This document shows, piece after piece, positions 1 through 64,000 of a stretch of DNA of 64,000 nucleotides. The notes under the pieces are model-generated. The model was not told the DNA's origin and did no database searches. It was given only the letters and a program-made list of their open reading frames with translations. The position numbers were made by a program, and so were the translations under genes. Numbering within the stretch: position 1 is the stretch's first letter; the number at the start of each line of letters is the position of its first letter. The stretch is from Trueperaceae bacterium (GTDB lineage: Bacteria > Deinococcota > Deinococci > Deinococcales > Trueperaceae): NCBI GenBank assembly GCA_965215565.1, contig CBDCDZ010000004.1:2176001-2240000 (forward strand), given 5' to 3'.

Positions 1-22
1 AGTCAGAATAAGCTTTTACTGT

Positions 23-157
23 TAGCAGTTCCACGACACACTGAGATAGTTGAACGCAGGTCTCAGCTCGCAGAGCTAGCGGAATTTCATCCCTTAAAGT
101 GCGTGCTAAACAGCGTTTCATAAAGTGAGAGTGTCTCTGACCAGATGATACCTGCTA
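23..157 (+). mobile_element. MITE-like repeat family B, copy 1 (TAGCAG...CTGCTA termini)
   Basis: Shares ends and internal motifs (gtgcgtgcta, aaagtgagagtgt, tgaccagatgatacctgcta) with 21216-21326, 32267-32398 and 52637-52819; non-coding. Confidence 0.75.
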
Positions 158-165
158 TGTTAAGG

Positions 166-233
166 GAGCCTATCAGCAAGTCAGCATTTCAGCGGGTCAG
201 AAAAACCTCACCTGCTGGCTAGCTGACACGCTC
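166..233. repeat. Intergenic repeat family E (TCAGC.../...GCTGA inverted short-tandem units)
   Basis: tcagcaag-tcagcatt-tcagc ... gctggctagctga; similar blocks at 29270, 33405, 45953. Confidence 0.6.
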
Positions 234-256
234 TCAATCTCTGGTAAACTGGCGGG

Positions 257-1390
257 GTGACGTTCTCTGAAGTCCTGCGCGACTACCACCGCCTCGAGCC
301 CCATCCCCTCCAAAACGGACGCTACGTAACGAAAAAGGGCGTGCGCGGCTACCCTGACGTTCCGGCGGGCGCGACCTTATTAGCGAAGGAAGCGGACCTT
401 TCCGCCGACAAGGTGAGCGACTTGACGGGCAGCGCGGGGTTCGTAGCGTTGGCGGCGCTCAGGCAAGGGGCGAGGGAGGTGCGCGTGGTGGAAAGCTCGA
501 GAGCTGCCCTGCGCTGCGCTAAGGAGACGTTCTCGGACAAACCTGTGACGCTCGTCGCGGGCGCACCTTGGGACGTTCCCGCTGAATCCACCGACCTCGT
601 ATGCCTCGCACCTCAAACGGACAAGGGAACGGCGAGGGTTCTCGCCGAGTTCGCGGGGGCGCACGCCGCCCTAAAGCAGGGCGGCGTCGCCTACTTCGTG
701 ATGCACAAAGACGGGGGCGCGAAGCGTTACGAAAAGCGGGCGGCAGCGCTTTTTGGCAGCAGCAAGGTCATCGCAAAAGAGGGTGGGTGGCGGCTTTCTC
801 GAGCCATTAAACAAGAGGTCACTGACCGAGAGGATAGAGAAGAGGTGCAGCCCTTAGCCTTCGAGGTTGCAGGGCTGAATGTAGAGGCGTTTCCAGGGAT
901 TTACGCAGCGGGCAAGCTCGACCCTGGCACGGCGTTTTTGCTCGAAACCTCAAACCTCTCTCCCCTATCGGGAAAGCGCGTCCTAGACCTCGGCTGCGGC
1001 TACGGGCTTCTAGCCCTCAAAGCCTCGCTCGAGGGCGCGTCGGTAACGGCATTAGACGACGATTTGCTCGCCGTGCGCAGCGCCTACCGAAACGCTGAGC
1101 GCTACGGCTTGGACGTGCGCGCGTTGCACTCCGATGTCGATTCGAAAATTCAGGACGAAATGTTCGACACCGTGCTGATGAACCCCCCTTTTCACATCGG
1201 TAAGCAAGTCGTGATGGATGTGCCGCGCGCCTTTTTAGCCGCTGCTCACGCGCACTTGCGCCCCGGCGGAACCCTTACGCTCGTCGCAAACAAGGCGCTC
1301 CCTTACGAACGGGACTTGGCACGGTGGGCGTCATTCGAAACATTGGCGGTGAACGGACAATTTAAGGTGTTAAAGGCAGTGAAAAGTTAA
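257..1390 (+). CDS. rsmC: Class I SAM-dependent methyltransferase, RsmC-like (16S rRNA m2G methyltransferase family)
   Basis: Two-domain MTase; PGIY..GKLDPGT, VLDLGCGYG and NPPFH motifs; TAAACT 6 nt before the GTG. Confidence 0.75.
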   Translation: MTFSEVLRDYHRLEPHPLQNGRYVTKKGVRGYPDVPAGATLLAKEADLSADKVSDLTGSAGFVALAALRQGAREVRVVESSRAALRCAKETFSDKPVTLVAGAPWDVPAESTDLVCLAPQTDKGTARVLAEFAGAHAALKQGGVAYFVMHKDGGAKRYEKRAAALFGSSKVIAKEGGWRLSRAIKQEVTDREDREEVQPLAFEVAGLNVEAFPGIYAAGKLDPGTAFLLETSNLSPLSGKRVLDLGCGYGLLALKASLEGASVTALDDDLLAVRSAYRNAERYGLDVRALHSDVDSKIQDEMFDTVLMNPPFHIGKQVVMDVPRAFLAAAHAHLRPGGTLTLVANKALPYERDLARWASFETLAVNGQFKVLKAVKS

Positions 1391-1500
1391 AAGCAATCCA
1401 GTCGAGCTGGTGTACGTTAGTTTTTGCGAAGCAAACGGTACGGTGAGCAATGAGTGAAAAGCTTTAGACTCATTGCTTTCAACTCATTGCTCATTGCTCA
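1384..1500. repeat. Intergenic repeat family A (GAGCAAT/ATTGCTC heptamer inverted array) with nested GAA-hairpin micro-element
   Basis: gagcaatgagtgaaaa...ctcattgctttcaactcattgctcattgctc; related copies at 19765, 27686, 34692, 48331. Confidence 0.75.
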
Positions 1501-2398
1501 GAACGTAGCCTCCACTCGGCTCGAGCCCCAACACCTGCCCCCCGTTCACAAAGGCTTGCATCTCACGCCTGACCTCTCGCGTCACCTCGCCCAAGCTGAT
1601 CGCCGCGAGCGTCGGTCCTGCACCCGAAAGGAAGGCGGCGCTTGCGCCTACCTCTAAGAGGCGCTGTCGACACTCGGCTAAACCCGGAATGAGCGGTTCG
1701 CGGTAGGGCTCGTGGAGCACGTCTTGCGCGGCGACGCGCAGCAGTTCGGGCTTGTTGAGGGCGACGGCAGCGGTCCAGAGGGCGGTGCGGCTCGCGCTAT
1801 AGATAGCGTCCGCGCGGGCGTAACTCGCGGGCAAGGCGGCTCTCGCCTCGCTCGTCAAGAGTTCGAAGTCGGGCACGGCGAAGCTGAAGCGCCAGTCGCT
1901 CGGCAGAGGTAAAGTTTGGCAGAGATAGCCCCCCTCCGCCCGCGCGCTCACCGTGAAGCCGCCGTAGACCGCCGGGGCGACGTTGTCGGGGTGCCCTTCG
2001 ATGTCGGCGGTAAGCTGAAACACGCCGTCTCGCCCCAGCCGCTCGCCCGTCCTCTCGCTTATCATTGTGTCCGCTAAAGCCGCGCCCGCGACGAGCGCGG
2101 CTGACGAGGAGCCTAGCCCTCTCGCCAGTGGAATGGGATTGTGAGCCTCCAACTGCACGCAGGGCGCACGTTCCCCTGATGCCGCGTAGACCGCCCGAAA
2201 GCCTCTGTGGATGAGGTTGTCGGGTGTGTCGGACACGCTACCCTCACCCTGGTAGATGAGGTGGTTTTCGGACGATAAGGTGGCGCTGACCTCGAGGTAG
2301 AGCCCCACCGCAATCCCTAAACAGTCGAAGCCCGGTCCCAAATTCGCACTCGTTGCGGGCACGCGAACCGTGATGCGCTCCGTCATAGCATCCGTCAC
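1484..2398 (-). CDS. thrB: Homoserine kinase
   Basis: VPATSANLGPGFD, IPLARGLGSSSAA, EGHPDN and LSGAGPT motifs. Confidence 0.97.
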   Translation of the reverse strand: MTDAMTERITVRVPATSANLGPGFDCLGIAVGLYLEVSATLSSENHLIYQGEGSVSDTPDNLIHRGFRAVYAASGERAPCVQLEAHNPIPLARGLGSSSAALVAGAALADTMISERTGERLGRDGVFQLTADIEGHPDNVAPAVYGGFTVSARAEGGYLCQTLPLPSDWRFSFAVPDFELLTSEARAALPASYARADAIYSASRTALWTAAVALNKPELLRVAAQDVLHEPYREPLIPGLAECRQRLLEVGASAAFLSGAGPTLAAISLGEVTREVRREMQAFVNGGQVLGLEPSGGYVLSNEQ

Positions 2399-3921
2399 GG
2401 CAGGTCAGACTTGATGCGCTTCAAATCCTGCCAAACGTCCGCGAAGTGCGTGATGAGGTCCGTCGCGATGAGCCCGTCGCCCCACCCCTGCGCGGCGCGC
2501 TCGCCCGCTACGCCGTGCGCGAACGCCGCCGCGCACGTCCGCCCGAAGAGGTCTTCTAACGTCTCAGCGCCCGCGCACCACGCGCCCAAAAGCCCGGAGA
2601 GCACGTCCCCCGAGCCGCCCGTCGCCATCCCCGGATGACCGTGCGTTGTGACGGCGGCGCGTCCGCCTGGTAGCGCGACCACCGTGGAGGCACCCTTGAG
2701 GAGGGCGACGGCGCGGCTCTTTTCAGCGAGCGCTTGCGCCGCCTGGACGGGGTCCCCCAGAATCTCCGAGGCGGAGCGCTCCAGGAGCCTCGAGGCTTCT
2801 CCCACGTGCGGCGTCAACACACAGCGCCCGTGCTCACGAACCGCCCCAAACCACGCCTCTCCGCCGGTCAACGCGCTCGCGTCGAGCACGGTGGGCACGT
2901 CGCTCTGCGCGATGAGTTCGCTCAGGTGAGGCGCGGCGCGTTCGTCCAAACCGGGACCGATGACGCGCACCTGGGCGCGTTTGTTTGAGAAGTCGGCGAG
3001 TTGCGCCAAGGGCTCCTCGTCCCACTTGAGGGGCTGAAAGATAATCTCCGCCCACGTGTTCGTGAAGCGCGCTTCGCCCGCCACCGTCACGAGCCCCGCG
3101 CCCGCCCGGAGCGCCGCGCGGCACGCCATCTCCGCCGCACCTAAGTACTGCTCGGAGCCCGCGATAACGAGAACCGTACCAACCTTGTACTTATGTGTAT
3201 CGTTTGAGCGCATCGGCAGGTGCTCGCTCACGTGTTCGGGCGTGAGCAGCGTGAGGCTCGAGTGCGCCGCCAGCACCTCTTGCGGGATGCCGATGTCAAC
3301 AACTTCAACCTCACCAAACGCGCCCCTCGCCGGATAGAAGGCGCTCGCGCGTTTAGGTCCGGCGAGTTGCACCGTCTTCGCCGCGCGGACGTACGGTCCG
3401 GTGAAGTTCACCTCATCCGCGTTTACGCCGCTCGGGATGTCGATGCTGAGGACGGGGGTGGGACTCGAGTTAAGCACCCCCACCACCTGCTCGAGTTCGC
3501 CCTCTAAAGGGCGGGACAAGCCGCTGCCGAAGAGGGCGTCAACCACGAGCGCGCAGGAGGTCAAGGTACGTTCTACAGAAGCCAAGTCCAGCGTCTCGGC
3601 TGCGCCCCCTACCGCTTTGAACGCGCCGCGCATCACGGCAGGGTCACCCGCAAGCTCGGCGGAGAGTTCGGCAACCCGCACGCTGTAGCCTGATAAAAGC
3701 AGATGTCGCGCCACGACGTAGCCGTCTCCGCCGTTGTTGCCTTTGCCGCAGAGGATGAGAACCGTACCTGGGTTGAACGGATAGTCTGTGCTCGAAAGAC
3801 GCTCGAGAACCGCGTCCGCCACCTTGCGCCCCGCTGTTTCCATCAGGATGAGAGAGGGGATGCCCGCGTTTATCGCCGCCTCGTCAACCGCGCGCATCTC
3901 CTTAGAGGTAAAGAGCTTCAT
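2395..3921 (-). CDS. nnr: Bifunctional NAD(P)H-hydrate epimerase/dehydratase
   Basis: YjeF-N (GKGNNGGDG, DIPSG) fused to YjeF-C (TPHVGE, ATGGSGDVL). Confidence 0.95.
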   Translation of the reverse strand: MKLFTSKEMRAVDEAAINAGIPSLILMETAGRKVADAVLERLSSTDYPFNPGTVLILCGKGNNGGDGYVVARHLLLSGYSVRVAELSAELAGDPAVMRGAFKAVGGAAETLDLASVERTLTSCALVVDALFGSGLSRPLEGELEQVVGVLNSSPTPVLSIDIPSGVNADEVNFTGPYVRAAKTVQLAGPKRASAFYPARGAFGEVEVVDIGIPQEVLAAHSSLTLLTPEHVSEHLPMRSNDTHKYKVGTVLVIAGSEQYLGAAEMACRAALRAGAGLVTVAGEARFTNTWAEIIFQPLKWDEEPLAQLADFSNKRAQVRVIGPGLDERAAPHLSELIAQSDVPTVLDASALTGGEAWFGAVREHGRCVLTPHVGEASRLLERSASEILGDPVQAAQALAEKSRAVALLKGASTVVALPGGRAAVTTHGHPGMATGGSGDVLSGLLGAWCAGAETLEDLFGRTCAAAFAHGVAGERAAQGWGDGLIATDLITHFADVWQDLKRIKSDLP

Positions 3922-3984
3922 GGGATTAGTTTACGCGATTGGGGTGAGGTTGGGCGGGGCTCGCTAGCGTTGAGGTACCTTTTG

Positions 3985-4101
3985 GATAGTAGCTTTAATC
4001 TGAAATAAAGCTGATGTCAAAGCGAGGGGTTTCAACCCCTTGTTCACCACATAGAGATGGCAGAGGGAGCACATAGCAGCGTTCGACTCAGAACCACTAT
4101 C
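3985..4101 (+). mobile_element. MITE-like repeat family D, copy 1
   Basis: gatagtagctt...aaccactatc imperfect TIRs, internal aggggtttcaacccctt hairpin; copies at 21806-21922 and 56359-56487. Confidence 0.8.
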
Positions 4102-4425
4102 ATCTTTTGCAGACTGAGGCAACACTCGGGGTGTACATTAAGCCGCCCCAACTCAAGCTCGAGTATCCTCTTTCGCCTTCACCCTACTGGGCAAGTACGC
4201 CTCGAAATAGAGGTACAATGTTGACTTAGCCCGCGCTTACCCCTCGAGGCTCGCGTTTGGTTCTGACCTTTTGCACTTTGACTCTATCATTCCTGTGCGG
4301 CGGTTCGTGAGGCGTTGCAGCGAGACGCCCGGCGGCTCGGTAGGGGTGTAGACTGGGTTTTCATAAAGCAGCCCGTATGATTCCATCGTGACGTTCCCTC
4401 CCCACCCTCCACCCTGGAGACTCTC

Positions 4426-6660
4426 ATGTTCGCCTTCCTAGCCACGTTTATCAGCCGCCGTCCCCGCACCGTCCTCTTCACGTGGCTCCTGCTCACACTT
4501 CTCGCGCTACCCTTTGCCGGGCGCGTCGGCGAGGTGCTCTCCGCAGAGGCGAGTGTCGTGCCGGGCAGCGCCTCCGCGCAGGTCGAGCGTTTACTAAGCG
4601 ACGAATTCAGCGGTCAAGACCAGAGCCTCTTGGTGTTGGTGGTCAGAGCGGAAGACGCCAAAGTCGGCGAGCCCGCCTTCAACAACGCCTTCGAGTCGCT
4701 CGCCGCTAATTTGCGGGCGCTACCAGGCGTAGAGAACGTGCAGGACTACAGGAACGCGGGCGACCTGTCGCTCGTCGCGCCCGATAAAAGCTACGCGCTC
4801 TCGCTGCTCACGCTCAACCAGGCGGCGGAGGCGCGGCGCACGTTGGCGGCGGTGGACGCGGTCTTAGCCGAATCCGAGACCTTTACCTTCAACCTCTCAG
4901 GGAGTCAGGCGGTCAAGCGTGAGCTAGAAGAGATCAGCGGGCGCGACGCGCGTCGTGCGGAGCTGTTCGGCTTGCCGCTCAGCCTCCTCGTGTTGGCGGT
5001 GGCGTTCGGGGCGCTCGTGGCGGCGGGGCTTCCCTTACTCGTAGCGGCGGTCTCCGTAACGCTCTCCTACGCGCTGCTCTTCGCACTCGGTCAGTTCGTT
5101 CCCTTCGCGGTCTTTGCCCAGACGATCGTCACCATGCTTGGGCTCGCGACGGGCATCGACTACGCGCTCCTCATCGTGAACCGCTTCCGCGAGGAGTTAG
5201 CGCGCGCGGCGAACCCCCGCGCCGCCGCCGCCGCGACGGTCATGACGGCGGGCAAGGCGGTGACGTTCAGCGGCTTCACGGTGATGATCGCGCTCGGGGC
5301 GCTGCTCGTGCCTCCGCTGGACTTCATCCGCTCGATCGGTCTAGGCGCGATGGTGGTCCTGCTCATGAGCGTGTCCGTCTCGGTCACCGCGCTGCCCGCG
5401 CTCCTAGCGCTGCTCGGCGAGCGCGTCAACGCGGGCAGATTGACGCGGCGCGTCCCTGGGCAGCGCTCCCGCGCGTTCTGGCGCAAGCGCGCGCGCCAAG
5501 TACAGCGCCACCCGCTGCGCTGGGCGCTAGGCGGCACGCTCTTCTTGCTCCTACTCAGTCTGCCCGCCGCGCGCATCGTCCTAGCGGACCCAGGGAGCGA
5601 AGGGCTGAGCCCGGCGACAGACGCGCGGCAGGTTCAAAATGCGCTGGACGAGACTGGCTTGGCGGGCGTACTCGACTCGTTCGCGGCGGTTTTGGACTTT
5701 GGACAAGCGGGCTTTTTCGAGCCGGAGAGCGTGCGGACCGCCTCGAAGTTCTCGCGCGAAGCCGTCGACATCTCTGGGCTCGAGCAGGCGTACTCACCGA
5801 CGACGGCGGGCGGCTTGCCGCCGCTGCTCCTTTCCGGCTATTACGCAACGAGAGAAACCGCCTTAGAGAGTCCCCTCGCCGAGCTGGTCAGGACCACTGT
5901 CAGCGAGAGTGGGCGCTACGCCCTCGTGCGGCTCTTCCCGGCGGGTGACCTCACCCTCACCGAGGTGCGGCGCGTTGAGGGTGAACTGAGGGCGCTCGGC
6001 CGAGACTTAGGCGCTGAGGTCATTGTCGGCGGCAGCTTGGTGAACGAGCGCGAGTGGACGCGCACGCTCTACAGCAACTTCCCGCTCGCCGCCGCGCTCG
6101 TCTACCTCGCTACGTTCATCCTCTTGGGGCTCGCCTTCCGCTCGCTGCTCATCCCCATCAAGTCAATCCTCCTTAACAGCTTAACGGTCAGCGCGGCCTT
6201 CGGGGTGATCACCCTTATCTTCCAGTACGGTGCGGGCATCTCGCTACTGGGGCTACCTGAGGCGCTCGGCTACGTGGACAGCAGCACGCCCATCTTCGTC
6301 TTCGCCATCGTGTTCGGGCTCAGCATGGATTACGAGGTGTTTCTCGTCGCCCGCGTTTTTGAGGCGCACGAGCGCGGGCTCTCCGACGCGGACGCCGTCG
6401 CCGAAGCGATGGGCGCAACGGGCGGTGTCATCAGCAGCGCGGGGCTCATCATGATCGTGGTGTTCGCGGTCTTTATCTCGAGCCAAATCGTCCTCATCAA
6501 AACGCTCGCGTTGGGTCTTACCATTGCGATCTTTTTAGACATTACCCTCGTGCGCTTAGCGCTCGTGCCTGCGGTCATGTCCTTGGCAGGTACCTGGAAC
6601 TGGTGGCTGCCGCGCCCCCTCAAGCGCTTGGCGGAACGGGTCAATATGCAGCATGATTGA
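4426..6660 (+). CDS. MMPL (RND superfamily) transporter
   Basis: Two repeats with GIDYALLIVNRFREE and GLSMDYEVFLVARV; C-terminal NWWLP. Confidence 0.93.
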   Translation: MFAFLATFISRRPRTVLFTWLLLTLLALPFAGRVGEVLSAEASVVPGSASAQVERLLSDEFSGQDQSLLVLVVRAEDAKVGEPAFNNAFESLAANLRALPGVENVQDYRNAGDLSLVAPDKSYALSLLTLNQAAEARRTLAAVDAVLAESETFTFNLSGSQAVKRELEEISGRDARRAELFGLPLSLLVLAVAFGALVAAGLPLLVAAVSVTLSYALLFALGQFVPFAVFAQTIVTMLGLATGIDYALLIVNRFREELARAANPRAAAAATVMTAGKAVTFSGFTVMIALGALLVPPLDFIRSIGLGAMVVLLMSVSVSVTALPALLALLGERVNAGRLTRRVPGQRSRAFWRKRARQVQRHPLRWALGGTLFLLLLSLPAARIVLADPGSEGLSPATDARQVQNALDETGLAGVLDSFAAVLDFGQAGFFEPESVRTASKFSREAVDISGLEQAYSPTTAGGLPPLLLSGYYATRETALESPLAELVRTTVSESGRYALVRLFPAGDLTLTEVRRVEGELRALGRDLGAEVIVGGSLVNEREWTRTLYSNFPLAAALVYLATFILLGLAFRSLLIPIKSILLNSLTVSAAFGVITLIFQYGAGISLLGLPEALGYVDSSTPIFVFAIVFGLSMDYEVFLVARVFEAHERGLSDADAVAEAMGATGGVISSAGLIMIVVFAVFISSQIVLIKTLALGLTIAIFLDITLVRLALVPAVMSLAGTWNWWLPRPLKRLAERVNMQHD

Positions 6661-7135
6661 CACCATTTCCAGGTCGTTCCTGCGAGGATGACCTGGAAAC
6701 GCTAAGAGGTTGACTCAACCGACTTTCGGTGCGTCTCTTGCGCTGTCCACCTTGGACGGTAGCGTTATGCTAAAATGTGCAAGGGTAATCTGCTCGCGAG
6801 CGCACCAGACGGCGGCTCACCGCGTCAGGCAGCCGTCATTTTACTCATCTCACTATGGAACATTATTGGGTCAGGTATATAGCGTGGAGACTGTTTCTTC
6901 ATCATTCCTTAAAGAATTTCCCCCAGTTCGTTAGGAATGTGACGTGTTCGCGCTTTCGCGCTATGTCTTACTTATAAGGTGAGGGGGTATGGCAAGCAGA
7001 ACGCGCTGAGAAACGACGACATGATTACAGCTATCCCTACTTCTCCCGCAACGAGGGTCCCGGTGTCTACTAAGCGCACTAGGCAATGCTCACTTACGGC
7101 AACGTACACCGGCGCATCTCGTCGGAATCGACAGC

Positions 7136-9100
7136 GTGCATCTTTACAAATCGCACAAATTACCACTACGTCAGGATGGGGGCAAGGTGCAATCTAACCT
7201 TAAACAAACCAGTACCCGCTCAATCGGAGAGCAATTTATCAAACTCGATATTCGCCGCCGCAAGCTCGCAAAGTTCGCCATCGACCTAGCCATTTGGTCC
7301 GTCGCCCCGGCGCTCGCTTTCTTTATCCGTTACGACTGGTCCGTGCCCGCGGAAGGTTACATCGGCATCGTTACCGCGACGGCGCTGCTCGTCCTCTTGA
7401 AAACGGCGGTGACGGTTCCCTTCGGCTTCTACCGGCGAAGCTGGGTCAGAGTCGCGTTTAGAGACGTCGGAGAGATCGTCAAGGTCACTTTGGGTACCGC
7501 GCTCGCCGCGAGCGTCTTGCTCCTCTGGTTAGGTCCGTCCTTGCAGATACCCAGGTCCATCGCCATACTGGACGGGCTTATCGCGCTCTTCGCGATGAGC
7601 GGCGTGCGGGGCGCATTTCGCTACTGGCGTGAAAGCCGGTTGGACAGAGCCGCCGGGGGTGCGGGGCGCAAACGGGTTCTCGTCGTCGGCGCGGGCGAGG
7701 CGGGTTCACTGATCGTCCGCGAGATGTTGCGTCACCCAGAGACAGGGCTCCAGCCCGTCGGCTTCTTGGACGATGACCGCGAAAAGATAGGCTACCGCAT
7801 CGCAACAGTACCTGTGCTCGGCACCGTTGACGATCTGAGCGCCGTCGCTAAAGACCACAAGGTTGACGAAGTGCTCATCGCGCTCCCCTCAACGGACGGC
7901 AGAACGGTGCGCAATATCGTCGAGCGCATCGAAAGCGCCCATGCGAAGCTCAGATACCGCATCATGCCCGGCGTTTACGAACTTCTAAGTGGCGAAGTCG
8001 ACATCAGCCGCATCCGCGAAGTCGAGATCGAAGACCTCTTGCGCAGACCTCCTATCGCACTCGACACAGACGCGATCAGCAGCTATATTACCGGAAAAAC
8101 GGTGATGGTTACGGGCGCGGGCGGCTCAATCGGTTCCGAGTTGGTGCGGCAAATCTGCCGCTTCGAACCTAAAGAGCTGATCTTATTTGGGCACGGCGAA
8201 AATAGCATTTACAAGCTCGAGCGCGAACTCGACCGCGACTGGCCCAGCATTCCCTATCACAGCGTCATCGCCGCCGTGCAAAACGTGGTGCGCTTAGACT
8301 ACATCTTCCAGCACTACCGCCCGCAAGTCGTCTTCCACACGGCGGCGCATAAGCACGTCCCCTTGATGGAACTCAACCCCGAAGAGGCGATTTTCAACAA
8401 CATCATCGGCAGTAAAAACCTCGTCACGCTAGCGCTCAAGTACAAGGTCTCGCACTTCGTCAACATCTCAACGGACAAGGCGGTCAACCCAACCTCAATT
8501 ATGGGCGCGTCTAAGCGGATGGTTGAACGTGTCGTCCAGGCGGCGGCGCGGCAAGCGGGCGAGGAGCAGGTCTTCGCCTCCGTCCGCTTCGGCAACGTGC
8601 TGGGCAGTCGTGGCAGCGTGATCCCCGTCTTTAAGCAGCAGATTCGCGCGGGCGGTCCCGTCACGGTAACAGACCCCAACATGACCCGCTACTTCATGAC
8701 GATCCCCGAGGCGACGCAGCTCGTGCTCCAGGCTGCAGGACAGGGCAAGAACGGCGAAATCTACATTCTGGATATGGGCGAGCCCGTCAAAATTGTCGAT
8801 CTAGCACGCGACCTCATCAAGCTCTCCGGCTTCGAGCCAGAAACGGACATCCCCATCGTCTTTTCGGGTAAGCGCCCCGGCGAGAAGCTCTACGAAGAGC
8901 TAATGACTCAAGAAGAACGCGGCGCATCGACTGCACACAGGAAAATCTTCGTAGCTAAGCCTTCACCGCTGGATATCGATGAGTTAGAACGCACCGTCAA
9001 AGAGTTGCAAGAAGCCGCGCTCAATTCAGATCACGACAAGATTCGGCGGCAACTTGAAGATTACATCCACGGCTGCAACTTTGAGAGCTTGAAAGCTTAG
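7136..9100 (+). CDS. Membrane-anchored nucleoside-diphosphate-sugar 4,6-dehydratase (CapD/PglF family); true start may be GTG at 7187
   Basis: N-terminal TM segments; VTGAGGSIGSE, AAHKHVP, STDKAV, RFGNVLGSRGSV and RPGEKLYEEL motifs. Confidence 0.92.
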   Translation: MHLYKSHKLPLRQDGGKVQSNLKQTSTRSIGEQFIKLDIRRRKLAKFAIDLAIWSVAPALAFFIRYDWSVPAEGYIGIVTATALLVLLKTAVTVPFGFYRRSWVRVAFRDVGEIVKVTLGTALAASVLLLWLGPSLQIPRSIAILDGLIALFAMSGVRGAFRYWRESRLDRAAGGAGRKRVLVVGAGEAGSLIVREMLRHPETGLQPVGFLDDDREKIGYRIATVPVLGTVDDLSAVAKDHKVDEVLIALPSTDGRTVRNIVERIESAHAKLRYRIMPGVYELLSGEVDISRIREVEIEDLLRRPPIALDTDAISSYITGKTVMVTGAGGSIGSELVRQICRFEPKELILFGHGENSIYKLERELDRDWPSIPYHSVIAAVQNVVRLDYIFQHYRPQVVFHTAAHKHVPLMELNPEEAIFNNIIGSKNLVTLALKYKVSHFVNISTDKAVNPTSIMGASKRMVERVVQAAARQAGEEQVFASVRFGNVLGSRGSVIPVFKQQIRAGGPVTVTDPNMTRYFMTIPEATQLVLQAAGQGKNGEIYILDMGEPVKIVDLARDLIKLSGFEPETDIPIVFSGKRPGEKLYEELMTQEERGASTAHRKIFVAKPSPLDIDELERTVKELQEAALNSDHDKIRRQLEDYIHGCNFESLKA

Positions 9101-9121
9101 GCGCTCATCTAACAGGCCAAG

Positions 9122-9157
9122 CCCCTCAACCTCTTCGTAAGGTTGAGGGGTATTTTG
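9122..9157 (+). terminator. Probable intrinsic terminator
   Basis: cccctcaacct-cttcgta-aggttgagggg followed by tatttt. Confidence 0.7.
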
Positions 9158-9232
9158 TTAGGGGACAATTGTCTATTCAAAGACGGCGCTTTCAGGCCTT
9201 AAACTGGATACTGAGATGATGGGAATGACCTC

Positions 9233-48327: not shown

Positions 48328-48330
48328 GAC

Positions 48331-48944: not shown

Positions 48945-50525
<1,581 letters not shown>

Positions 50526-52819: not shown

Positions 52820-52823
52820 AAAT

Positions 52824-53528: not shown

Positions 53529-53814
53529 ATTCCTCCGTAAGTGGGGTCTTCAAAGCGTAACGCCCAGTTTACCCCGCGTTTTGTTCTTTAGCTGAGCGGC
53601 GTCTAACAGAATCGTGACGGCGCTACAGAAGAATTATGGCGGGCGCGGTTGAAGGTGCCGTGAGAAGAGCGCGGCGTGAGGTTGGGATTTCGTTCATCTT
53701 GATCCGTAAGGCGAGAAAAATCACACGCTGCGAGTGTCTGTGAAGGGGTCTTTAGAACCTCCACATCCTTATGAGAGTGGCTGTGCTACGCTCCAAAATA
53801 GAAAGGAGCAGGTC

Positions 53815-55065: not shown

Positions 55066-55096
55066 ATTCATTCCTTAATTTCCAGGTAACGCTGGC

Positions 55097-55124
55097 GTAG
55101 GGGCGATTCATGAATCGCCCCTAC
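55097..55124. repeat. REP-like perfect 28-bp palindrome with GTAG termini
   Basis: gtaggggcgattcatgaatcgcccctac between convergent genes. Confidence 0.85.
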
Positions 55125-55130
55125 TTTTCG

Positions 55131-56387: not shown

Positions 56388-56487
56388 ATGCTCCTTCTAC
56401 TATCTCTACACAGTAAATAAAAGGGGTGAACAAGGGGTTGAAACTCCTCGCTTCAACATCAGTGTCATCTCGGATAAAGCTACTATC
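56359..56487 (-). mobile_element. MITE-like repeat family D, copy 3, overlapping the crtY start
   Basis: Reverse complement matches 3985-4101 and 21806-21922. Confidence 0.8.
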
Positions 56488-56508
56488 CTCGTATCTTCTG
56501 GTCAGCGT

Positions 56509-57681
56509 TCAATAGCGCTCATCCACCACTAAGTCGCCCTCTACCTCGTCCTCCACGTGAATCTCGTTCATGCCGACGCCCAACGCGCTGCGGATGCGCT
56601 CCGCGAGTTCGAACGTGTTGGTGTTCGGGTCGCCCTCTATGTGCAGCGAGGCGATGTCCGTCCCCTCGGGACCGCGCTTCACGCGCAGTTGGTACTTGCG
56701 GAAGTTGAGCCCTTCGGTGGCGGCGAGCAAGAACAGCAACTCGCGCGGGTAGACCTTGACTCCTTTGAGCTTGACCATCGTGTCGGTGCGCCCGAAAACG
56801 CCTCTAGGCAACCTGTTGTCCGCGCCCTTGAGCGTGAGGTCACCCGTCATAAAGCGCAGCATGGGCATACCCTCGCGGGTCAAGCTCGTTACCACGACTT
56901 CGCCCTTTTCGCCCTCTGAGACGGGCATCAAGGTCTGCGGGTCCAACACCTCGACGATCGCCGCCTCGGGGACTAAGTGCATTCCGTCTCGAGCCGACGT
57001 TTCCGCCGCGATGACGCCCGTCTCACTGAGCCCGTAGGCGTCATACGCCGTGCAGCCCAAGCTCGCCTCCACCTCTTCGCGCAGACCCGGCACGGCGCTG
57101 AAGGGCTCACCCGCTGCCAAGAGCGTCTCGAAACGCCCGCCCACCGCGCCAATTTTACGCGCGAAACTCGGGTTCGAGACGAGCACGCCGAAGCCATACG
57201 TCCGCGCGATGTCCACGACGTTGTCGGCGTCGCTAGGTCCAAGCGCGAGGACGGTCGCGCCCAAAGAAGTCAGCCCCTCGTGGAAGAGCCAGCCGCCCGC
57301 GAGCATATGATAGCTGAAGACGACCAAGCAGCGGTCTTTGGGCGTGAGACCGCACCGCTCGAGTTGCTTTTGCACAGCGTCGGCTTGCCACCTGATGTCC
57401 TGCGCGGTGAGGTACTCGGGCATCTTGCCGCGCAACGCCGGAATGGGCGCGGGCGTGAGGTGCATCTGGACGATGTCATCTGCTAAGAAGCCACCATGCG
57501 GGTCGTCGTGTGGCGCGTGCGCCTCGAAGTGCTCCGTGAGGTTGTCTCTCGTGACGAAGGGCAGCGCGCTCACGTCGTCGGCGCTCAGCGCGTCCGGGTC
57601 CACGTCGCGCAGCCGCTCCGCGTAGAAGGGGAGCGTTTTGGCTCGAGAGACGATGTGGCGAAGCCGGGCGGTTCTGTCCAT
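56509..57681 (-). CDS. Phenylacetate-CoA ligase-like adenylate-forming enzyme
   Basis: YGLSE.G, GE.GEVVVTSL.RE.MP.LRF.TGD, GRTD.MVK.KGV.VYP. Confidence 0.85.
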   Translation of the reverse strand: MDRTARLRHIVSRAKTLPFYAERLRDVDPDALSADDVSALPFVTRDNLTEHFEAHAPHDDPHGGFLADDIVQMHLTPAPIPALRGKMPEYLTAQDIRWQADAVQKQLERCGLTPKDRCLVVFSYHMLAGGWLFHEGLTSLGATVLALGPSDADNVVDIARTYGFGVLVSNPSFARKIGAVGGRFETLLAAGEPFSAVPGLREEVEASLGCTAYDAYGLSETGVIAAETSARDGMHLVPEAAIVEVLDPQTLMPVSEGEKGEVVVTSLTREGMPMLRFMTGDLTLKGADNRLPRGVFGRTDTMVKLKGVKVYPRELLFLLAATEGLNFRKYQLRVKRGPEGTDIASLHIEGDPNTNTFELAERIRSALGVGMNEIHVEDEVEGDLVVDERY

Positions 57682-57836
57682 GAAACTCCTTGTTATTGTT
57701 TAGCGGTGTACCACGTTTTGTGTATAGAGCTACGCGCAGTCCTTGAGAGGGATTACTTGCGCGTTCACTGGCGCACAAAACGGGATACCTTGTTTTCCTT
57801 CCTGCAAGTCATGTCGGTTTTACTATACCTCTCCTG

Positions 57837-58616
57837 CTAAGCCACAACTCGAGTCCCCGCCTCGCCCGCTAGCGCGCGCCCTAACGTCCCCGGCACCCGT
57901 CCATCCGCAATCACCGCGAAGCTCGCACCTTGCTCCAGCGCCTCTAGCGCCGCCTCGACTTTGGGAATCATGCCGCCCGTGATGCGCCCATCCACGATGC
58001 GCGCTCGGACCTCTCGCCTGGAGAGTTCGCTGAGGAGGCTCTCAGGGTTTTCGGGCTGGTCCAGAACGCCGGGAATGTTGCTCAGGAAAACCACCGGAGC
58101 CCCGAACGCGCCCGCCACCGCGCCCGCCACGCTGTCAGCGTTGACGTTGAGACTATCCGGGAGTACATTCGCATCTTTTGTCCGAGCGATACAAGCAACC
58201 ACGGGCGTGAGCGGCAAATCGAGGAGTTGACGCAATACCTCTTGATTCACTCTGACCACCTTGCCGACGTGACCCAGTGCGGCGTCCAGAGGTTCGGCGA
58301 TCAGGAGTTCGGCGTCTCTTCCCGTCAGCCCTACCGCGCCGCCTATCTCCTGCGCCAAGACCTTGCCGAGTTGAGTCAAGACGCTCTCGATAACGGGGAG
58401 GCTCAGGTCATCCGTCACCCTCAGCCCGCGCACGAACGCACTGGCGATCTTCGCCTCAGCGAGCGCCTCACCGATAAAAGGACCGCCGCCGTGTACGACG
58501 ATAGGCGCGCGGGTCTCTCGCAACTTCGCAATGTCCGCCGCAACGCGCCTACGCAGAAGAGGTTCGGTCATGGCGTTGCCGCCGTATTTGATAACGATGG
58601 GAGAGAGGGTAGGCAT
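57837..58616 (-). CDS. argB: Acetylglutamate kinase
   Basis: VIKYGGNAM, VHGGGP, GLRVT, NVNAD..A, GGMIPK. Confidence 0.93.
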   Translation of the reverse strand: MPTLSPIVIKYGGNAMTEPLLRRRVAADIAKLRETRAPIVVHGGGPFIGEALAEAKIASAFVRGLRVTDDLSLPVIESVLTQLGKVLAQEIGGAVGLTGRDAELLIAEPLDAALGHVGKVVRVNQEVLRQLLDLPLTPVVACIARTKDANVLPDSLNVNADSVAGAVAGAFGAPVVFLSNIPGVLDQPENPESLLSELSRREVRARIVDGRITGGMIPKVEAALEALEQGASFAVIADGRVPGTLGRALAGEAGTRVVA

Positions 58617-58790
58617 GAAGTCATTTTATCTGTGTTGGGAGAGGAAGCCATATTCACGAAGGAAGTAGATAGTAATCAGGTATCAGTGGTCAGCGCAAAA
58701 GCTCCCTGATTAATGAACTACTGACCCCTATTTTTTCCCTTTTCGCCGCGCCGCACTCTGCTATGCTAGCGAGGATTTTGGGAGGCATTT

Positions 58791-60236
58791 GTGGAAGACA
58801 CGCATGAAGACACGTACACAGACAAACTCACCTTCGGCACGGACGGCTGGCGCGACATTATCGGCGATATTTTTACCTTTAAGAACGTCTCGAGAGTCGC
58901 CCAAGCGTACGCCGAACACCTCTTGGAGAAGGGCACCCCGAGCGTCGTCATCGGCTACGACACGCGCTTTAACGGTGCACGTTTTGCCAACCTCGTCGCG
59001 GAGACGATGGCGGCGAACGGCGTCGCGGTTAAGATTGCCGCTGCGCCCTTGCCGACGCCCGCGCTCTCGCTCGCGGCGGTGCACTTCGGCGCGGGTGGCG
59101 GCGTGATGCTGACCGCCTCGCACAACCCGCCCGCTTACAACGGCTTCAAGATCAAGGGACCTTATGGTGGCACGGCGACGCCCGACATCTACGAGGACGT
59201 CGCCTCGAGAACGAGCCGCATCACCAGGGGTGACGTAAAGGCGTTCGACGCGAAAACGCACAGCTTTGAAACGTTCGATATCAGGGACGCTTATTTCGAC
59301 AAGCTCGCCGAACTCGTGGACGTTGACGTTCTTAAAAACGCCTCGGGCAGCCTCGTTCATGACGCGATGGGCGGCGCGGCGGCGGGCTGGCTAAAGGGAT
59401 TTTTAGAGCGCGCAGGCTCACCGCTCGAGGTGGAAGAGGTCCGCAGCGAGCCCACGCCGATGTTCTACGGTGTCAACCCCGAACCGATGCCGCAGAACTT
59501 AGAGACCACGGTGGCGCACATGCAACGCTCGGACGCCCACTTCGCCGCCGTGACCGATGGCGACGGGGACCGTTTAGGGCTCGTCTTGCCGGGCGGCGAC
59601 TATTTCAACGCGCACCAAATCTTCGCTGTGCTTCTCAGTCTCATGAACGAAAAGGGCTACTCGGGGCGCGTCATCAAGACCTTTAACGTTTCGCGCCTCG
59701 TCGAGCGGCTCGCGGCTAAGCGGGACATCCCGGTTTCAGAAACGCCCATCGGCTTCAAGTACATCGTCGCGGCGATGTTGGAAGGGGACGTGCTCATCGG
59801 CGGCGAGGAGTCGGGCGGCATCGGCGTGACGGGCTACTTGCCCGAGCGCGACGGGGTGGCGAACAGCCTCTTGATGTTGGAGGCCGTTCTCAAGTCGGGC
59901 AAGAGCGTCGCAGACCTCTTCGCCGCGTTGGAGGACGAGACCGACTGGCAGCACGCCTATGACCGCCTGGACGTTCATCTGAGCGGCGGTGAGTTGAAAG
60001 ACGCGGTGATGCGTTCGCTGGACAACCCGCCGGGTGAATTCGCGGAGCGAGAGGTTGAATCTGTCGAAACCTTGGACGGCGTCAAGCTCAACCTGAGCGG
60101 TAACGCCTGGATTCTCTTTCGCCCGAGCGGGACCGAGCCCGTGTTGCGCGTCTACTGCGAAGCGCCGAGCGCGGAAGAGGTCGAGATGATTTTAGACGCG
60201 GCCCAGGGGTGGGTGTCGGCGCAGGAGTCTAGCTGA
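58791..60236 (+). CDS. Phosphoglucomutase/phosphomannomutase
   Basis: FGTDGWR, TASHNP, DGDGDR, GEESGG, RPSGTEP. Confidence 0.95.
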   Translation: MEDTHEDTYTDKLTFGTDGWRDIIGDIFTFKNVSRVAQAYAEHLLEKGTPSVVIGYDTRFNGARFANLVAETMAANGVAVKIAAAPLPTPALSLAAVHFGAGGGVMLTASHNPPAYNGFKIKGPYGGTATPDIYEDVASRTSRITRGDVKAFDAKTHSFETFDIRDAYFDKLAELVDVDVLKNASGSLVHDAMGGAAAGWLKGFLERAGSPLEVEEVRSEPTPMFYGVNPEPMPQNLETTVAHMQRSDAHFAAVTDGDGDRLGLVLPGGDYFNAHQIFAVLLSLMNEKGYSGRVIKTFNVSRLVERLAAKRDIPVSETPIGFKYIVAAMLEGDVLIGGEESGGIGVTGYLPERDGVANSLLMLEAVLKSGKSVADLFAALEDETDWQHAYDRLDVHLSGGELKDAVMRSLDNPPGEFAEREVESVETLDGVKLNLSGNAWILFRPSGTEPVLRVYCEAPSAEEVEMILDAAQGWVSAQESS

Positions 60237-60421
60237 GCCGGGTCGGTCACGCTCCTACGCGCTCAGGTGGCGTCGCTCTTCATCAACCCTTCACACCTCT
60301 TCTTCAACCCTTTATCCTCTCTTCCTCGACCCTTCACGCACGCCGAGCACACTGCCGACATAGGTAGCGAGCACTGCTGAACGCACGCACTAGAGCAGCG
60401 CTGCCGAGAGAGGAAGGTGCC

Positions 60422-60805
60422 ATGAAACGTCCATTCGTACTTCTCACAGGGTTGATGCTCATAGCTGGTCTGGTAGGGGCGCAAGAGGCGAGCACGGAGG
60501 CGGAGAGCGAGGCAAGCAGCACCTACAACGTCGCCTTTTACGATGGTGACCCGGCAGGTAACGGCGAGAAAATCATGACCGAAGAGGTGTCGGCACATTC
60601 GGTAGCGGCGCGCAACGAGGATTTGGAGGATGCCGAATACGTCACTATCAGTCATGGCGCTCAGAGCTACACCTTCGAGGTTGCTAGTGCAGGCGCGAGC
60701 CGCAACTCGGTCTTTTTGGACCTCTCGGGCGATGACCTCTCGGTGAACGAACTGCTCGCTAAGCAAAGCAGTAATCTGAATGCGCTGGAGCGTTACAGTA
60801 ATTGA
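60422..60805 (+). CDS. Secreted acidic hypothetical protein
   Basis: Signal peptide MKRPFVLL...VGA-Q; AGGAAGG RBS. Confidence 0.75.
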   Translation: MKRPFVLLTGLMLIAGLVGAQEASTEAESEASSTYNVAFYDGDPAGNGEKIMTEEVSAHSVAARNEDLEDAEYVTISHGAQSYTFEVASAGASRNSVFLDLSGDDLSVNELLAKQSSNLNALERYSN

Positions 60806-60931
60806 AGGAGGAGTTCTCGACTTATTGCCCTTAGCTCGCCCGGGGAAGCGCTGGCTGAGTAGGTAGGGAAATTTGTAGGTTTCTCGAGCGTGCTCAACCG
60901 ACACTGAACACAACGCACTAAAATACTGTTG

Positions 60932-60959
60932 AAAGACCTCTTCATGGAGGTCTTTTTTT
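60932..60959 (+). terminator. Intrinsic terminator
   Basis: aaagacctc-ttcatg-gaggtcttttttt. Confidence 0.75.
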
Positions 60960-61138
60960 AGGACTCAAATCCGGTTGTGAGGACCTTCACAAACCTCACC
61001 GCTGCATACGTTCTCGCGGGCTAAGGCGCGGTATTCTTTGGTACGCAGCAAAGATTGAGTCGCTGCGTCCTGCTCAAACAGCTACGCCAAAATAGAGATA
61101 AAAAGCGTGGAATTGCGCACTCGGTTCCGTGCACAGAT

Positions 61139-61156
61139 TGTTAAACTTCTTTAACA
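61139..61156. promoter_or_regulatory. Candidate MarR operator
   Basis: TGTTAAA-CTTC-TTTAACA palindrome upstream of marR. Confidence 0.45.
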
Positions 61157-61230
61157 GTTAAGGCTTTGCAGAATCTTAACAAAAGGTAAACATGTTCTTT
61201 GCAGCATCCCTCGATACTTAACGCTATGAA

Positions 61231-61752
61231 ATGGACCCTTATGAAACGGACCCTGGTGACATGGACATGCCGATGACGGCGATGAACGACTATTTAAGCA
61301 AACCTATAGAGAATGTGGAGCGCGCGGACGAAGGGCTCGAAGAGCTATTCGAGCGCGTCCAGCAGAACTCGTTCGCGCTGATGTGGACCTTTAAGCGTCA
61401 CATGGACGAGACGTTTCGCGCGCTCGAGCTTAAACCCTTCGAGGTCTTAGCGCTCGAGCTGCTCACGAAGGACGCGCGCTATCCTAAAGACTTGGCGGAG
61501 GCTTTGGACGCCGCGCCACCTGTCATCTCAGCGCTCCTGCGAGGTCTGGAGGCGCGGGGGCTGCTCGAGCGTCACCTTGACCCAGCGGACCACCGCCGCG
61601 TCTTCTTAGTCTTGACGGATGCGGGGCGAGACGTGCACGCGCAAGCGAAGCGCACCTGGCGCGCTTCGCAGCGTGAGCGCTTAGCGCGGCTCAGCCTCGA
61701 GCAGTTGCGCGCACTGGCGCAGATTCAGCGCGCGCTGTTGGAGGAGCGGTGA
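61231..61752 (+). CDS. MarR-family transcriptional regulator (start uncertain)
   Basis: P.DLAE.L....P.IS..L..LE.RGL.ER..DP.D.RRV.L.LT.AG. Confidence 0.92.
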   Translation: MDPYETDPGDMDMPMTAMNDYLSKPIENVERADEGLEELFERVQQNSFALMWTFKRHMDETFRALELKPFEVLALELLTKDARYPKDLAEALDAAPPVISALLRGLEARGLLERHLDPADHRRVFLVLTDAGRDVHAQAKRTWRASQRERLARLSLEQLRALAQIQRALLEER

Positions 61753-63605
61753 GGTTCCTCCACGTTGCGCTGCTCTCGCTAGTTTTAGGAAGTCTACCAC
61801 TTGGTCACGTTCAGGAGACGCAAGCACCCGAGGAAACACAGGAGCAGGCGAGCCAGACCTCATTAGAGGCGCAACGCGCCGAACTGAGCGCCCGCGAGAA
61901 TGTTCTGGCGGAAGCGCGCGCCGCTTTAGAGCCCCAAAGAGCGGAGGTGAGGCGGCGGCGCGCCCTACTGAATCAGCAGCTCGCCGCGCTAGACGCGCAG
62001 GAGATGGCGCTGCAACTCTTAGAGGAGACCCTAGCCGAGCAGGAGAACGTCTCGGCGGCGCAGCGTGAAGCCGCCGAGTTGCAGCGTCAAGCCCTCGAAG
62101 CACAGCGGGCTGCGTTGGCGAATCAGATCGAAGAGGTCGAAGCGTTGGAGGCGGACCTCGCAGCGCGAGAGGAACAACTCGCGGCGCAAGAAGCTGAGTT
62201 GCAAGGGCTCCGTGACGAGGTGGCGCAAGCGGAAGAGGCGGCGGCGCGGTGGCGCGAAGCGGCGCAGGAGGCGCAGCGCGAACTGCTCGAGTCCCTGCTC
62301 GTCACGTTGGAGAGCAACCCGCGCTACCTCGCTGCGCAAGCCGCAGTCGAGGCGGCTGAGGCGCAGCTAAGCGCAGCGTATAACCCCGCGTCCTTGACGG
62401 TGGAGGGAAGCTATACGAACGTTGACGCCGACGATATTCCCCAAGCTCCCGGCGGGGCGACGCCGCAACTTCAGCAGATGCAACCCGAACCAGAGCCCGG
62501 ACAAGAACAGCCCGGTGGCGGGTCAGCAAGCAACTCGTACGACCTCTCCGCCACTGCGACGTTTCGCCCTTTTCCCTTCGGCGACACCGCCGACTTAGTG
62601 CGTCAGCAGGAGTTGGCGCTGGAGAACGCGGTGCTCGACTTTCGCGAGACGGTAGCGAGCTTGCAAGGGCAAGCGTTGGAGTCCGCCTTGCAGTTCCGGT
62701 TAGCGCGCCAGTCCGTCGATTTAGCGGATAACACTTTGGAGGCGGCGCGTTCGGCTTTGGAGGCGACGCAGACGCGCGCCGAGCGGGGCGCGGCGAACGC
62801 GCGCGAGTTGCGAGACGCTGAGGCGAACTTTCAGGAGTCGGAGAACTTCTTTGAGAACGCGCAGGCGAACTTAGAACTTGCCCGCTTGAGCTTACGCACG
62901 CTCGATTTGGAGAACTTTACGGTGGCGCTCAGCGCCGCCTCGGACGAAGACATCGACGCACTGCTCGCGCTGCCGCGCGTTTCGGAAGGATTACCGCTGT
63001 CGGTCTTACGCTCGAGGGTCTCCTCCGCACAAGCCGCCATCGGCGTAGGGTCAGCGCAGCGCGACCTCATCCCCACCGCGCAAGCCTCGTACAGCTATAA
63101 CTTGGACGACCGAAGCTCCCTAAGCGCCTCCCTCGAGTCGCGCACGCTGCAACCGAGCGTGAGCTACAGCTATCAGGACCCCGAACGTTCGCTGCCCGAA
63201 AGCGCCGTCAACGGCGTGTTCCGTGCCAGTATCTCGGCGAGCATCTCGTTTGGCGTGTTCGACGAAATCAGCGCGGCGCAGGCGCAGCGGCGTTCGGCTG
63301 AGGCGGGCATCGTAGCGGCGCAGGAGAACGCGGAGCTGCAACTCGTCTCGCTCACCAACGCGCTGAACGAGGCGGAGCGCACAGTGGACTTAGAGCGCAT
63401 CCAGTTCCGCAACGCGCAACGCGCCTTTGAAGAGAACCGGCAGCGCCAGGAGCTAGGGCTCATCACGCCTCTAGAGACGCAGCAGGCGTTGGTCGAACTG
63501 CTCCAAGCCGACATCGAACTGCGCCAAGCGCGTTTTAGCGCCCTACAAGCGCTTTTAGACCTTTACGAATTCTACGCCCTGCCCCCCTCGGAGGTGCTGC
63601 TATGA
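61749..63605 (+). CDS. TolC-like outer-membrane efflux protein with a long N-terminal coiled coil
   Basis: Signal peptide, ~150 aa E/Q/A/R heptad region, then OEP-like helical repeats. Confidence 0.75.
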   Translation: MRFLHVALLSLVLGSLPLGHVQETQAPEETQEQASQTSLEAQRAELSARENVLAEARAALEPQRAEVRRRRALLNQQLAALDAQEMALQLLEETLAEQENVSAAQREAAELQRQALEAQRAALANQIEEVEALEADLAAREEQLAAQEAELQGLRDEVAQAEEAAARWREAAQEAQRELLESLLVTLESNPRYLAAQAAVEAAEAQLSAAYNPASLTVEGSYTNVDADDIPQAPGGATPQLQQMQPEPEPGQEQPGGGSASNSYDLSATATFRPFPFGDTADLVRQQELALENAVLDFRETVASLQGQALESALQFRLARQSVDLADNTLEAARSALEATQTRAERGAANARELRDAEANFQESENFFENAQANLELARLSLRTLDLENFTVALSAASDEDIDALLALPRVSEGLPLSVLRSRVSSAQAAIGVGSAQRDLIPTAQASYSYNLDDRSSLSASLESRTLQPSVSYSYQDPERSLPESAVNGVFRASISASISFGVFDEISAAQAQRRSAEAGIVAAQENAELQLVSLTNALNEAERTVDLERIQFRNAQRAFEENRQRQELGLITPLETQQALVELLQADIELRQARFSALQALLDLYEFYALPPSEVLL

Positions 63606-64000
63606 CGGCTACATCTATGATGCGCGCAAGCCTCCTCTTGCTCGCCCTCGGCTTGTCCTTCGCGCAGGCGCTCACTTTGGAGGAGGCGCTCTCTAGCGCC
63701 TCGGAGCGCCCCGCCGTCGCCACCGCCCGCATCGAACTGCGTGACGCGATCATCAACTCAGAGCGGACCCAGGAAGACCCCTTAGCGGTGAGAAGTGACA
63801 CTTTGCAAGCGGAGCAGCGCTTAGAACTCGCTAGAGCGAGCTTCATCCAGACCTACTACACCGCGCTGCAAGAGATCGCTTCGGCGTACACGGGCGTGCT
63901 GCAAGGGCAGAAAAGCGTCGCGGTGGCTCAAAAAGCGGCGGCGGTGAGCGAGAATTCGCTGGAGATTGCCCAAATTCGCGTGAACAACGGTAGCGGCACC
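63602..64000 (+). CDS. Second TolC-like protein (partial, runs off the window)
   Basis: ATG overlaps the previous stop; MTATSMMRASLLLLALGLSFAQALTLEEAL... is open to the window end. Confidence 0.7.
   Translation, partial: MTATSMMRASLLLLALGLSFAQALTLEEALSSASERPAVATARIELRDAIINSERTQEDPLAVRSDTLQAEQRLELARASFIQTYYTALQEIASAYTGVLQGQKSVAVAQKAAAVSENSLEIAQIRVNNGSGT

Follow-up and report, generated by a model that had tools for sequence, protein, structure and literature searches.

To our knowledge, HIP1 (GCGATCGC), the highly iterated palindrome (HIP) of cyanobacteria, has gone without a proven reader for three decades. HIP1 and the alternate HIPs are dispersed palindromes that are in excess in every reading frame and in spacers, better conserved between genomes than control words, replaced by a variant word in some lineages, and of unproven function (PMC4390886, PMC5861425, PMC13756078). 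Here we report that the hexamer CTCGAG, studied in a 64,000-nucleotide stretch of a Trueperaceae bacterium (contig CBDCDZ010000004.1 of assembly GCA_965215565.1, positions 2,176,001 to 2,240,000; hereafter the window), shares these properties, and that it is very probably a dispersed signal, ancestral in the Deinococcota, kept by selection (or a selection-like drive) on the exact hexamer. It differs from HIP1 in length and phylum, in having no cognate methylase that tracks it and no periodicity visible to simple autocorrelation, and in its modest excess in the source genome (5-fold over base composition), HIP1 scale being reached only in one family (f5) and one further genome (G242). Also unlike HIP1, its presence tracks that of the helicase-nuclease AddAB.

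The Chi words of AddAB and RecBCD are, like CTCGAG, short words over-represented in AddAB-encoding genomes, with lineage-specific variants and with copies on resident phage, as P1 carries the Chi of E. coli (PMC4614115, 10.1101/2021.07.08.451572). CTCGAG parts from them in being palindromic and not strand-polarised, and in an excess that is far stronger in some lineages and is not explained by codon use. The DNA uptake sequences of Neisseriaceae and Pasteurellaceae resemble it in lying on both strands, in genes and spacers and commonly in terminator stems, in hosts with ComEC; CTCGAG is shorter, palindromic and not tied to ComEC, and a phage and a conjugative plasmid match the chromosomes in its density. 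In Nocardia, clusters of the same hexamer lie at the replication origin and are tied to an orphan methylase (PMC4752239), a local arrangement, whereas in the Deinococcota it is genome-wide, even and without a conserved methylase. A literature search confined mostly to open-access papers returned no report of a CTCGAG excess or of Chi in Deinococcota. This stretch contributes the weaker Trueperaceae form of the signal, estimates of its loss and gain rates, a junction test with a negative outcome, a range that spans the phylum and includes cultured taxa, and a link to AddAB in which the word can switch.

CTCGAG is iterated in all frames and in spacers

The window holds 122 exact copies (positions 293..63137, unstranded; 1.9 per kb against a genome mean of 1.55 per kb), where 19.8 are expected from base composition (GC 57.6%). 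The initial annotation had tallied about 120 against about 20 by hand, in several frames and in intergenic DNA, and both statements hold: by our own gene calls, 54 copies lie in frame 0 (CTC GAG), 11 in frame 1, 33 in frame 2 and 24 between genes. Genome-wide (4.49 Mb, 58% GC) there are 6,990 sites at 57-97 per 50 kb, with 1.8-2.5 per kb on the three small contigs; among the 64 six-base palindromes none is as enriched as CTCGAG, and most are strongly depleted. The genome's IMP dehydrogenase has its nearest matches, at up to 82% identity, in Trueperaceae records. Counts per 5, 10 and 20 kb have a variance equal to their mean. No periodicity was seen at 1-150 kb by simple autocorrelation, which differs from the published HIP1 method (largest |z| 2.8 among 150 lags), and no spacer type is preferred (2.0-2.3 per kb in divergent, tandem and convergent spacers); in-frame pairs 6-30 bases apart are mildly scarce (62 vs 94, z -3.8, one of 238 tests). 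The poorest 20 kb of the source genome (G000), with 11 sites, is an island (G000:C4:1540000-1560000) with type I restriction genes and with transposon-like genes that look Tn7-like by eye, and is probably recent foreign DNA.

Codon use was controlled with two nulls on 3,331 of 3,930 genes retained from our own calls: a within-gene synonymous shuffle, and a null that fixed each codon's first base and the next base, which is not an exact dicodon-preserving null. Against the shuffle, CTCGAG stands at 3,371 vs 2,838 in frame 0 (1.19-fold), 367 vs 48.5 in frame 1 (7.6-fold) and 1,377 vs 295 in frame 2 (4.7-fold); the second null gave 1.4-, 10- and 2.6-fold, respectively. Because the Leu-Glu frame dominates (3,371 of 5,115 coding sites), the excess over the shuffle is only 1.6-fold when all coding DNA is pooled (rank 181 of 3,152 hexamers). 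In short spacers CTCGAG is the top hexamer, 8.9-fold over base composition and 5.4-fold over a second-order model (9.8-fold after repeat masking), with a mild preference for GG on its 5′ side. Most sites encode Leu-Glu, yet the excess acts at the DNA level.

The exact hexamer is conserved between congeners

The genome was aligned to two congeners: G001, at about 85% identity over about 1.0 Mb (roughly a fifth of the G001 genome), and G002, over 0.17 Mb. CTCGAG is the best-conserved spacer hexamer against the congener (0.79 vs a mean of 0.41, rank 1 of 733), and its ratio of one-mismatch to identical counterparts, 0.07, is the lowest of 406 words (next 0.17, median 0.61). Losses number 67 against 443 expected at synonymous sites with matched flanks, and about 7 against 75 in spacers once the strand double count is removed, a loss at 0.09-0.15 of the background rate. 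Gains are raised 1.5-2.1-fold, and all six positions are affected, by transitions and transversions. Divergence in the flanks does not drop beyond that at control words, and no long-range protection was seen. A pairwise test of the same kind was used by Xu et al. to argue for selection on HIP1 (PMC5861425); the loss and gain test fits selection and biased repair alike and cannot separate them.

The word spans the Deinococcota

We surveyed 251 Deinococcota genomes (f1 being the Trueperaceae family and f2 the Deinococcaceae; genus names given for our handles are inferred). CTCGAG reaches 5.2-6.5 per kb in f5, 25-30-fold over base composition in the fetched DNA at 45-51% GC; placement of this family by RecA gave no close named relative. 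Densities are 1.3-3.5 per kb in genera g29, g43 and g44 of f4, 0.7-2.9 in f3 and 0.3-2.6 in f1. The Thermus-like genus g26 has 0.6-1.6 per kb, near its own GAGCTC control, and f2 at most 0.46, except G195 (3.6) and G242 (7.0). Among named plasmid and phage records, sampled at 33-40 kb each, Allomeiothermus pMESIL01 carries 2.4 per kb, the Oceanithermus conjugative plasmid pOCEPR01 2.7, Meiothermus phage MMP17 2.6 (evenly spread, with no terminal clustering), Thermus pTT27 1.1 and D. radiodurans MP1 0.2; plasmid and phage protein searches returned no Deinococcota records. CTCGAG is thus iterated across the phylum: cultured Allomeiothermus and Oceanithermus replicons and a Meiothermus phage carry it, in Thermus the signal is weak, and Deinococcus lacks it.

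The source genome, G001 and G002 also iterate a second word, AAGAGGT/ACCTCTT. It has 100 copies in the window, lies on both strands without polarity, and is 15-fold over base composition in masked spacers. At 1.1-2.0 per kb in the source genus and at most 0.37 in 15 other family loci, it is confined to that genus among the loci compared.

CTCGAG tracks AddAB, with a word switch in one genus

The source genome encodes an adjacent addB-addA pair outside the window (G000:C4:4294319-4299458), and Atlas features class its candidate AddB as AddB-like (score 0.97; ADDB_N and PDDEXK_1 clusters); the Deinococcota protein is short (786 aa), with a conserved N-terminal domain. Residue 54 is G, except in the two CTCTGG genomes described below, where it is N. 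AddA was profiled across 72 genomes and AddB across all 251. AddB was found in 68 of 69 f1, 60 of 61 f4, 12 of 12 f3, 4 of 5 f5 and 4 of 103 f2 genomes. The 102 genomes without a match comprise 99 of f2 (all at or below 0.46 CTCGAG per kb), G004, the Thermus-like G077 and G032, and 100 of the 102 have at most 0.46 per kb. G004, the only f1 genome without AddB, stands at 0.29 per kb and is one of two f1 genomes below 0.35, and G077 has 1.1 per kb, equal to its own control. Within genus g52, G242 has AddA, AddB and 7.0 per kb, while G196 has neither protein and 0.3 per kb.

The four AddB-bearing f2 genomes all iterate a word: CTCGAG in G195 and G242, and CTCTGG in G194 (4.5 per kb) and G232 (1.6 per kb). 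CTCTGG occurs 22,865 times in G194 (control 2,571) and 9,548 times in G232 (control 3,729), the top two of 67 genomes, and in G194 it is enriched in all six frame and strand classes. Both genomes have an intact addB, and the AddB of all four nests among the AddB of CTCGAG genomes. A change to a word that is not a palindrome is easier to reconcile with a reader of one strand than with a symmetric dimer. NucS does not track CTCGAG, nor do ComEC and MutL (5 genomes each), ComEC being present in the word-poor G196, G202 and D. radiodurans control. AddAB is necessary-looking for the word, but not sufficient: G202 and 29 Thermus-like genomes encode it and show no clear excess. G194 and G232 belong to genus g50 (L326-L331), which is without CTCGAG, and CTCGGG is also raised in G194.

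No methylase accompanies the word generally

Elhai's rule holds that a HIP comes with its methylase (PMC4390886), from which the Deinococcota word departs. No C5 methylase or Vsr was matched in the source genome. Four methylase families are patchy across 41 genomes (34, 28, 17 and 14 of 41), and no tested family is common to CTCGAG-rich genomes in the 41- and 60-genome sets; four CTCGAG-bearing f1 genomes (G011, G017, G021 and G023) match none of the four. The initial annotation had suggested an XhoI-like methylase tied to CTCGAG. The enzyme closest to that description is a solitary methylase at L193 (G035:C11:4339-6087), with no evident nuclease gene alongside, which we take to be akin to M.PaeR7I/M.XhoI, its specificity being putative. 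Full-length relatives of it occur in 3 of 41 and 11 of 60 genomes, in none of 7 Thermus-like and none of 6 f2 genomes, and were not found in the source genome (99.99% complete), in G001 or in any of the 5 f5 genomes, so the suggestion fails for this genome. These relatives, seen only in CTCGAG-bearing genera, may shield sites from restriction.

The source genome's own methylases were considered as writers of CTCGAG and rejected: they are scattered, and several lie beside nuclease- or ATPase-like genes or are of atypical composition. One, of 615 aa, has relatives at 36-39% identity in only three fetched loci (no genome-wide search was made).

A Chi-like reading and its rivals

AddAB is to us the most likely reader of CTCGAG, as a Chi-like signal, although we put this forward tentatively. 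AddB carries a Chi-scanning domain in B. subtilis (PMC4614115); Deinococcus is without addAB, and Thermus AddAB acts strongly on incoming DNA, its loss raising transformation about 100-fold with plasmid and 30-fold with linear DNA (PMC11143384, PMC9751324). On this reading, AddAB that has loaded on a broken or incoming DNA end would cease degradation at the first CTCGAG it reaches and initiate recombination. A palindromic Chi reads the same whichever side of a random break the enzyme starts from, so it would work for both ends without any strand polarity. Since AddAB destroys incoming DNA in Thermus, word-rich DNA would survive uptake better, which could drive CTCGAG to high density and into resident plasmids and phages. 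The complete scheme, in which CTCGAG is the palindromic, unpolarised Chi of the Deinococcota AddAB, was lost with AddAB in Deinococcus, changed to CTCTGG in one genus and reached HIP1-like density by rescuing broken or incoming DNA, is possible, and we hold it a little more loosely than the identity of the reader.

Several points weigh against AddAB as the reader. The correlation rests on about three independent losses, kin not being independent; two AddAB losses are in small genomes (2.1 and 2.3 Mb), and G004 is also without ComEC and MutL matches, so general genome reduction could explain the losses of both AddAB and the word. AddB is present in 29 of 30 Thermus-like g26 genomes, which have 0.6-1.6 CTCGAG per kb and no clear word in 134 kb; G202 has AddAB and only 0.29 per kb, and G032 has 5.2 per kb and AddA but no AddB match by two queries (94% complete, 120 contigs). 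No strand polarity was seen for GGCTCGAG in the source genome, nor for CTCTGG in 60 kb of G194 (GC skew nearly flat, replichores poorly defined). The Chi words known so far are not palindromes and mostly run in the direction of replication, the abundance of E. coli Chi is explicable by codon use, and the 25-30-fold excess of f5 is far above that described for Chi (10.1101/2021.07.08.451572). No solved structure was matched by the sequence of Deinococcota AddB, so its Chi pocket is unmapped, and the second word of the source genus implies that another reader exists or that AddAB reads two. We have not filed CTCGAG as Chi, because the defining activity is conjectural and the polarity is absent.

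A sequence-specific protein of another kind, such as an uptake receptor or a nucleoid or chromosome-structure protein, might instead read CTCGAG, as is suspected for HIP1, with AddAB merely co-lost. The same conservation data would follow, and the frequency of CTCGAG in terminator stems, the mild scarcity of close in-frame pairs and the Thermus-like genomes that have AddAB without an excess all agree with such a protein, as does the link of HIP1 to uptake genes (PMC13756078). We nevertheless hold it somewhat less likely than AddAB, given that ComEC is present in word-poor genomes, that neither periodicity nor a spacer preference was seen, that the phage and the conjugative plasmid are as rich as chromosomes, and that no candidate for such a protein emerged. 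A neutral repair or mutation bias that protects and creates CTCGAG with no benefit to the cell would yield the same pairwise pattern of less loss and more gain, and could account for a density that falls with codon-model score (from 2.1 to 0.8 per kb) and for the word on resident phage and plasmids. It is improbable in view of the effect at all six positions, on transitions and transversions, which is unlike Vsr-type repair, the lack of a Vsr or C5 methylase match in the source genome, the transition neighbours of CTCGAG, which in f5 are its commonest neighbours, as for decay products, and flanks no less divergent than those of control words.

We give still less credence to Elhai's HIP1 model transferred to this phylum, whereby sites accumulate through the methyl-directed ratchet of a CTCGAG methylase and act as foci for recombination at accessory junctions. 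The putative PaeR7I/XhoI-like enzyme does occur in some word-rich genera and in no Thermus-like or f2 genome examined, CTCGAG methylation is described in a hot-spring host-phage group (10.64898/2026.06.24.734251), and one insertion and a small excess at alignment edges (both below) point the same way; but that enzyme was not found in this genome, G001 or any of the 5 f5 genomes, four f1 genomes bear the word without a match in four methylase families, and the junction tests are negative. Least probable is a by-product of Leu-Glu codon use and the shunning of nearly all other palindromes. The in-frame majority, at 1.19-fold over the shuffle, and the strong depletion of most other six-base palindromes would suit it, but off-frame sites are 4.7-7.6-fold and spacers 9-10-fold in excess, conservation is strongest in spacers, and the excess in f5 occurs at 45-51% GC. 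Leu-Glu usage as the full explanation, which the initial annotation had named as the way its proposal might fall, is ruled out by these observations.

The tracking of one enzyme makes CTCGAG open to direct bench test. Should CTCGAG prove to be the Chi of AddAB, the phylum would have a palindromic Chi, of which there is none among the Chi words in the literature consulted, and a highly iterated palindrome with an identified reader. It would also hint at the cause of the severity with which Thermus AddAB degrades incoming DNA, and these bacteria might be transformed more readily with DNA that bears the word at its ends. If it is not Chi, CTCGAG keeps its value as a selected signal, whose sharp pattern of presence and absence can guide the search for its reader.

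CTCGAG does not mark accessory junctions

The initial annotation had placed nine sites at the edges of accessory segments and proposed that such sites channel gene gain and loss. All nine positions do hold a site, one of them (given as 41673) actually starting at 41672, but only three lie within 20 bases of an alignment edge with G001 or G002. The best case in the window, 32422..32427, lies directly at a G001 rearrangement edge (32428); 19762..19767 is 11 bases from a G001 edge at a small spacer gap through which G002 aligns, and 44391..44396 is 19 bases from a G002 edge. The site at 43623..43628 is 30 bases from an edge, 21942..21947, in a spacer with a dispersed repeat, 75, and 30628..30633, one base past a predicted stop, 79. 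The remaining three are 220-655 bases away: 17661..17666 lies within DNA common to both congeners, 220 bases from the nearest edge, and is not a junction, 41672..41677 is 566 bases from the nearest edge, and 25630..25635 is 655 bases inside a segment missing from both congeners. All nine are unstranded.

Circular shifts predict CTCGAG within 10 bases of 3.5 of the 72 edges in the window, where 7 have it (p 0.09), and over all alignments 43 of 826 edges have it within 8 bases, against 25.8 matched (p 0.002). We discount this small excess, because the control repeat word GAGCAA is also in excess at edges (29 vs 15.5) and a conserved word tends to end alignments. CTCGAG is shared at 28 of 783 edges (11 of 303 rearrangement, 5 of 251 gene-scale and 12 of 229 small-gap edges), with no excess at the gene-scale ones. 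The comparison with G001 gave 56 unshared blocks of 1 kb or more; with a site counted within 30 bases of an end, 9 of their 112 ends have CTCGAG against 6.0-7.1 expected, and none of the 56 is flanked at both ends; the blocks are as CTCGAG-rich as shared DNA (1.77 vs 1.46 per kb). Only 1 of 46 clean indels between congeners has a CTCGAG direct repeat. Channelling of gene gain and loss by CTCGAG is not measurable in these data, and what survives of the proposed analogy with HIP1 is the excess in all frames and in spacers and the conservation between genomes, not the methylase link or the channelling.

The lone clear insertion at the word is one of 2,027 bases with TCTCGAG direct repeats (G000:C4:3080314-3082342, L313), for which G001 has an empty site with one copy; it holds two genes, regulator-like and transporter-like by eye. 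Dispersed repeats of 110-160 bases, four of them in the window (19023-19135, 21215-21327, 21805-21923 and 32260-32400), have dozens of copies, many with TAGCAGGTATCATCTGG at one end, underlie many of the clean indels between congeners, and look like non-autonomous mobile elements.

Terminator hairpins and further features of the genome

Two terminator-like, unstranded hairpins between convergent genes carry CTCGAG in their stems, at 20504 and 20527 in 20498..20538 and at 24681 and 24693 in 24673..24706, and fold with z of -4.7 to -6.8. The initial annotation was right that these hairpins exist with CTCGAG in both arms, but any palindrome that sits on one side of a stem necessarily recurs on the opposite side, and each hairpin therefore counts as one event. 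Spacer stems hold CTCGAG in 24 of 266 cases against 4.8 expected, and the same roughly 5-fold excess is seen for GCGCTC and AAGAGG. A stand-alone ThsB/TIR-like gene at window positions 19876-20478 is common to both congeners.

Most palindromes are strongly shunned in the source genome and in f5 loci L100-L119, with GGCGCC, GCATGC and GAGCTC at 0.02 of expectation and GGCC at 0.12-0.19, even though no C5 methylase was matched in the source genome. Contig G000:C3 (23.7 kb) carries one gene set twice, shifted by about 11 kb, and is thus probably an 11-kb plasmid assembled twice. GC skew and gene orientation both run almost flat along G000:C4, which, with 158 rearrangement joins found over about 1.2 Mb of congener DNA, indicates a heavily shuffled chromosome.

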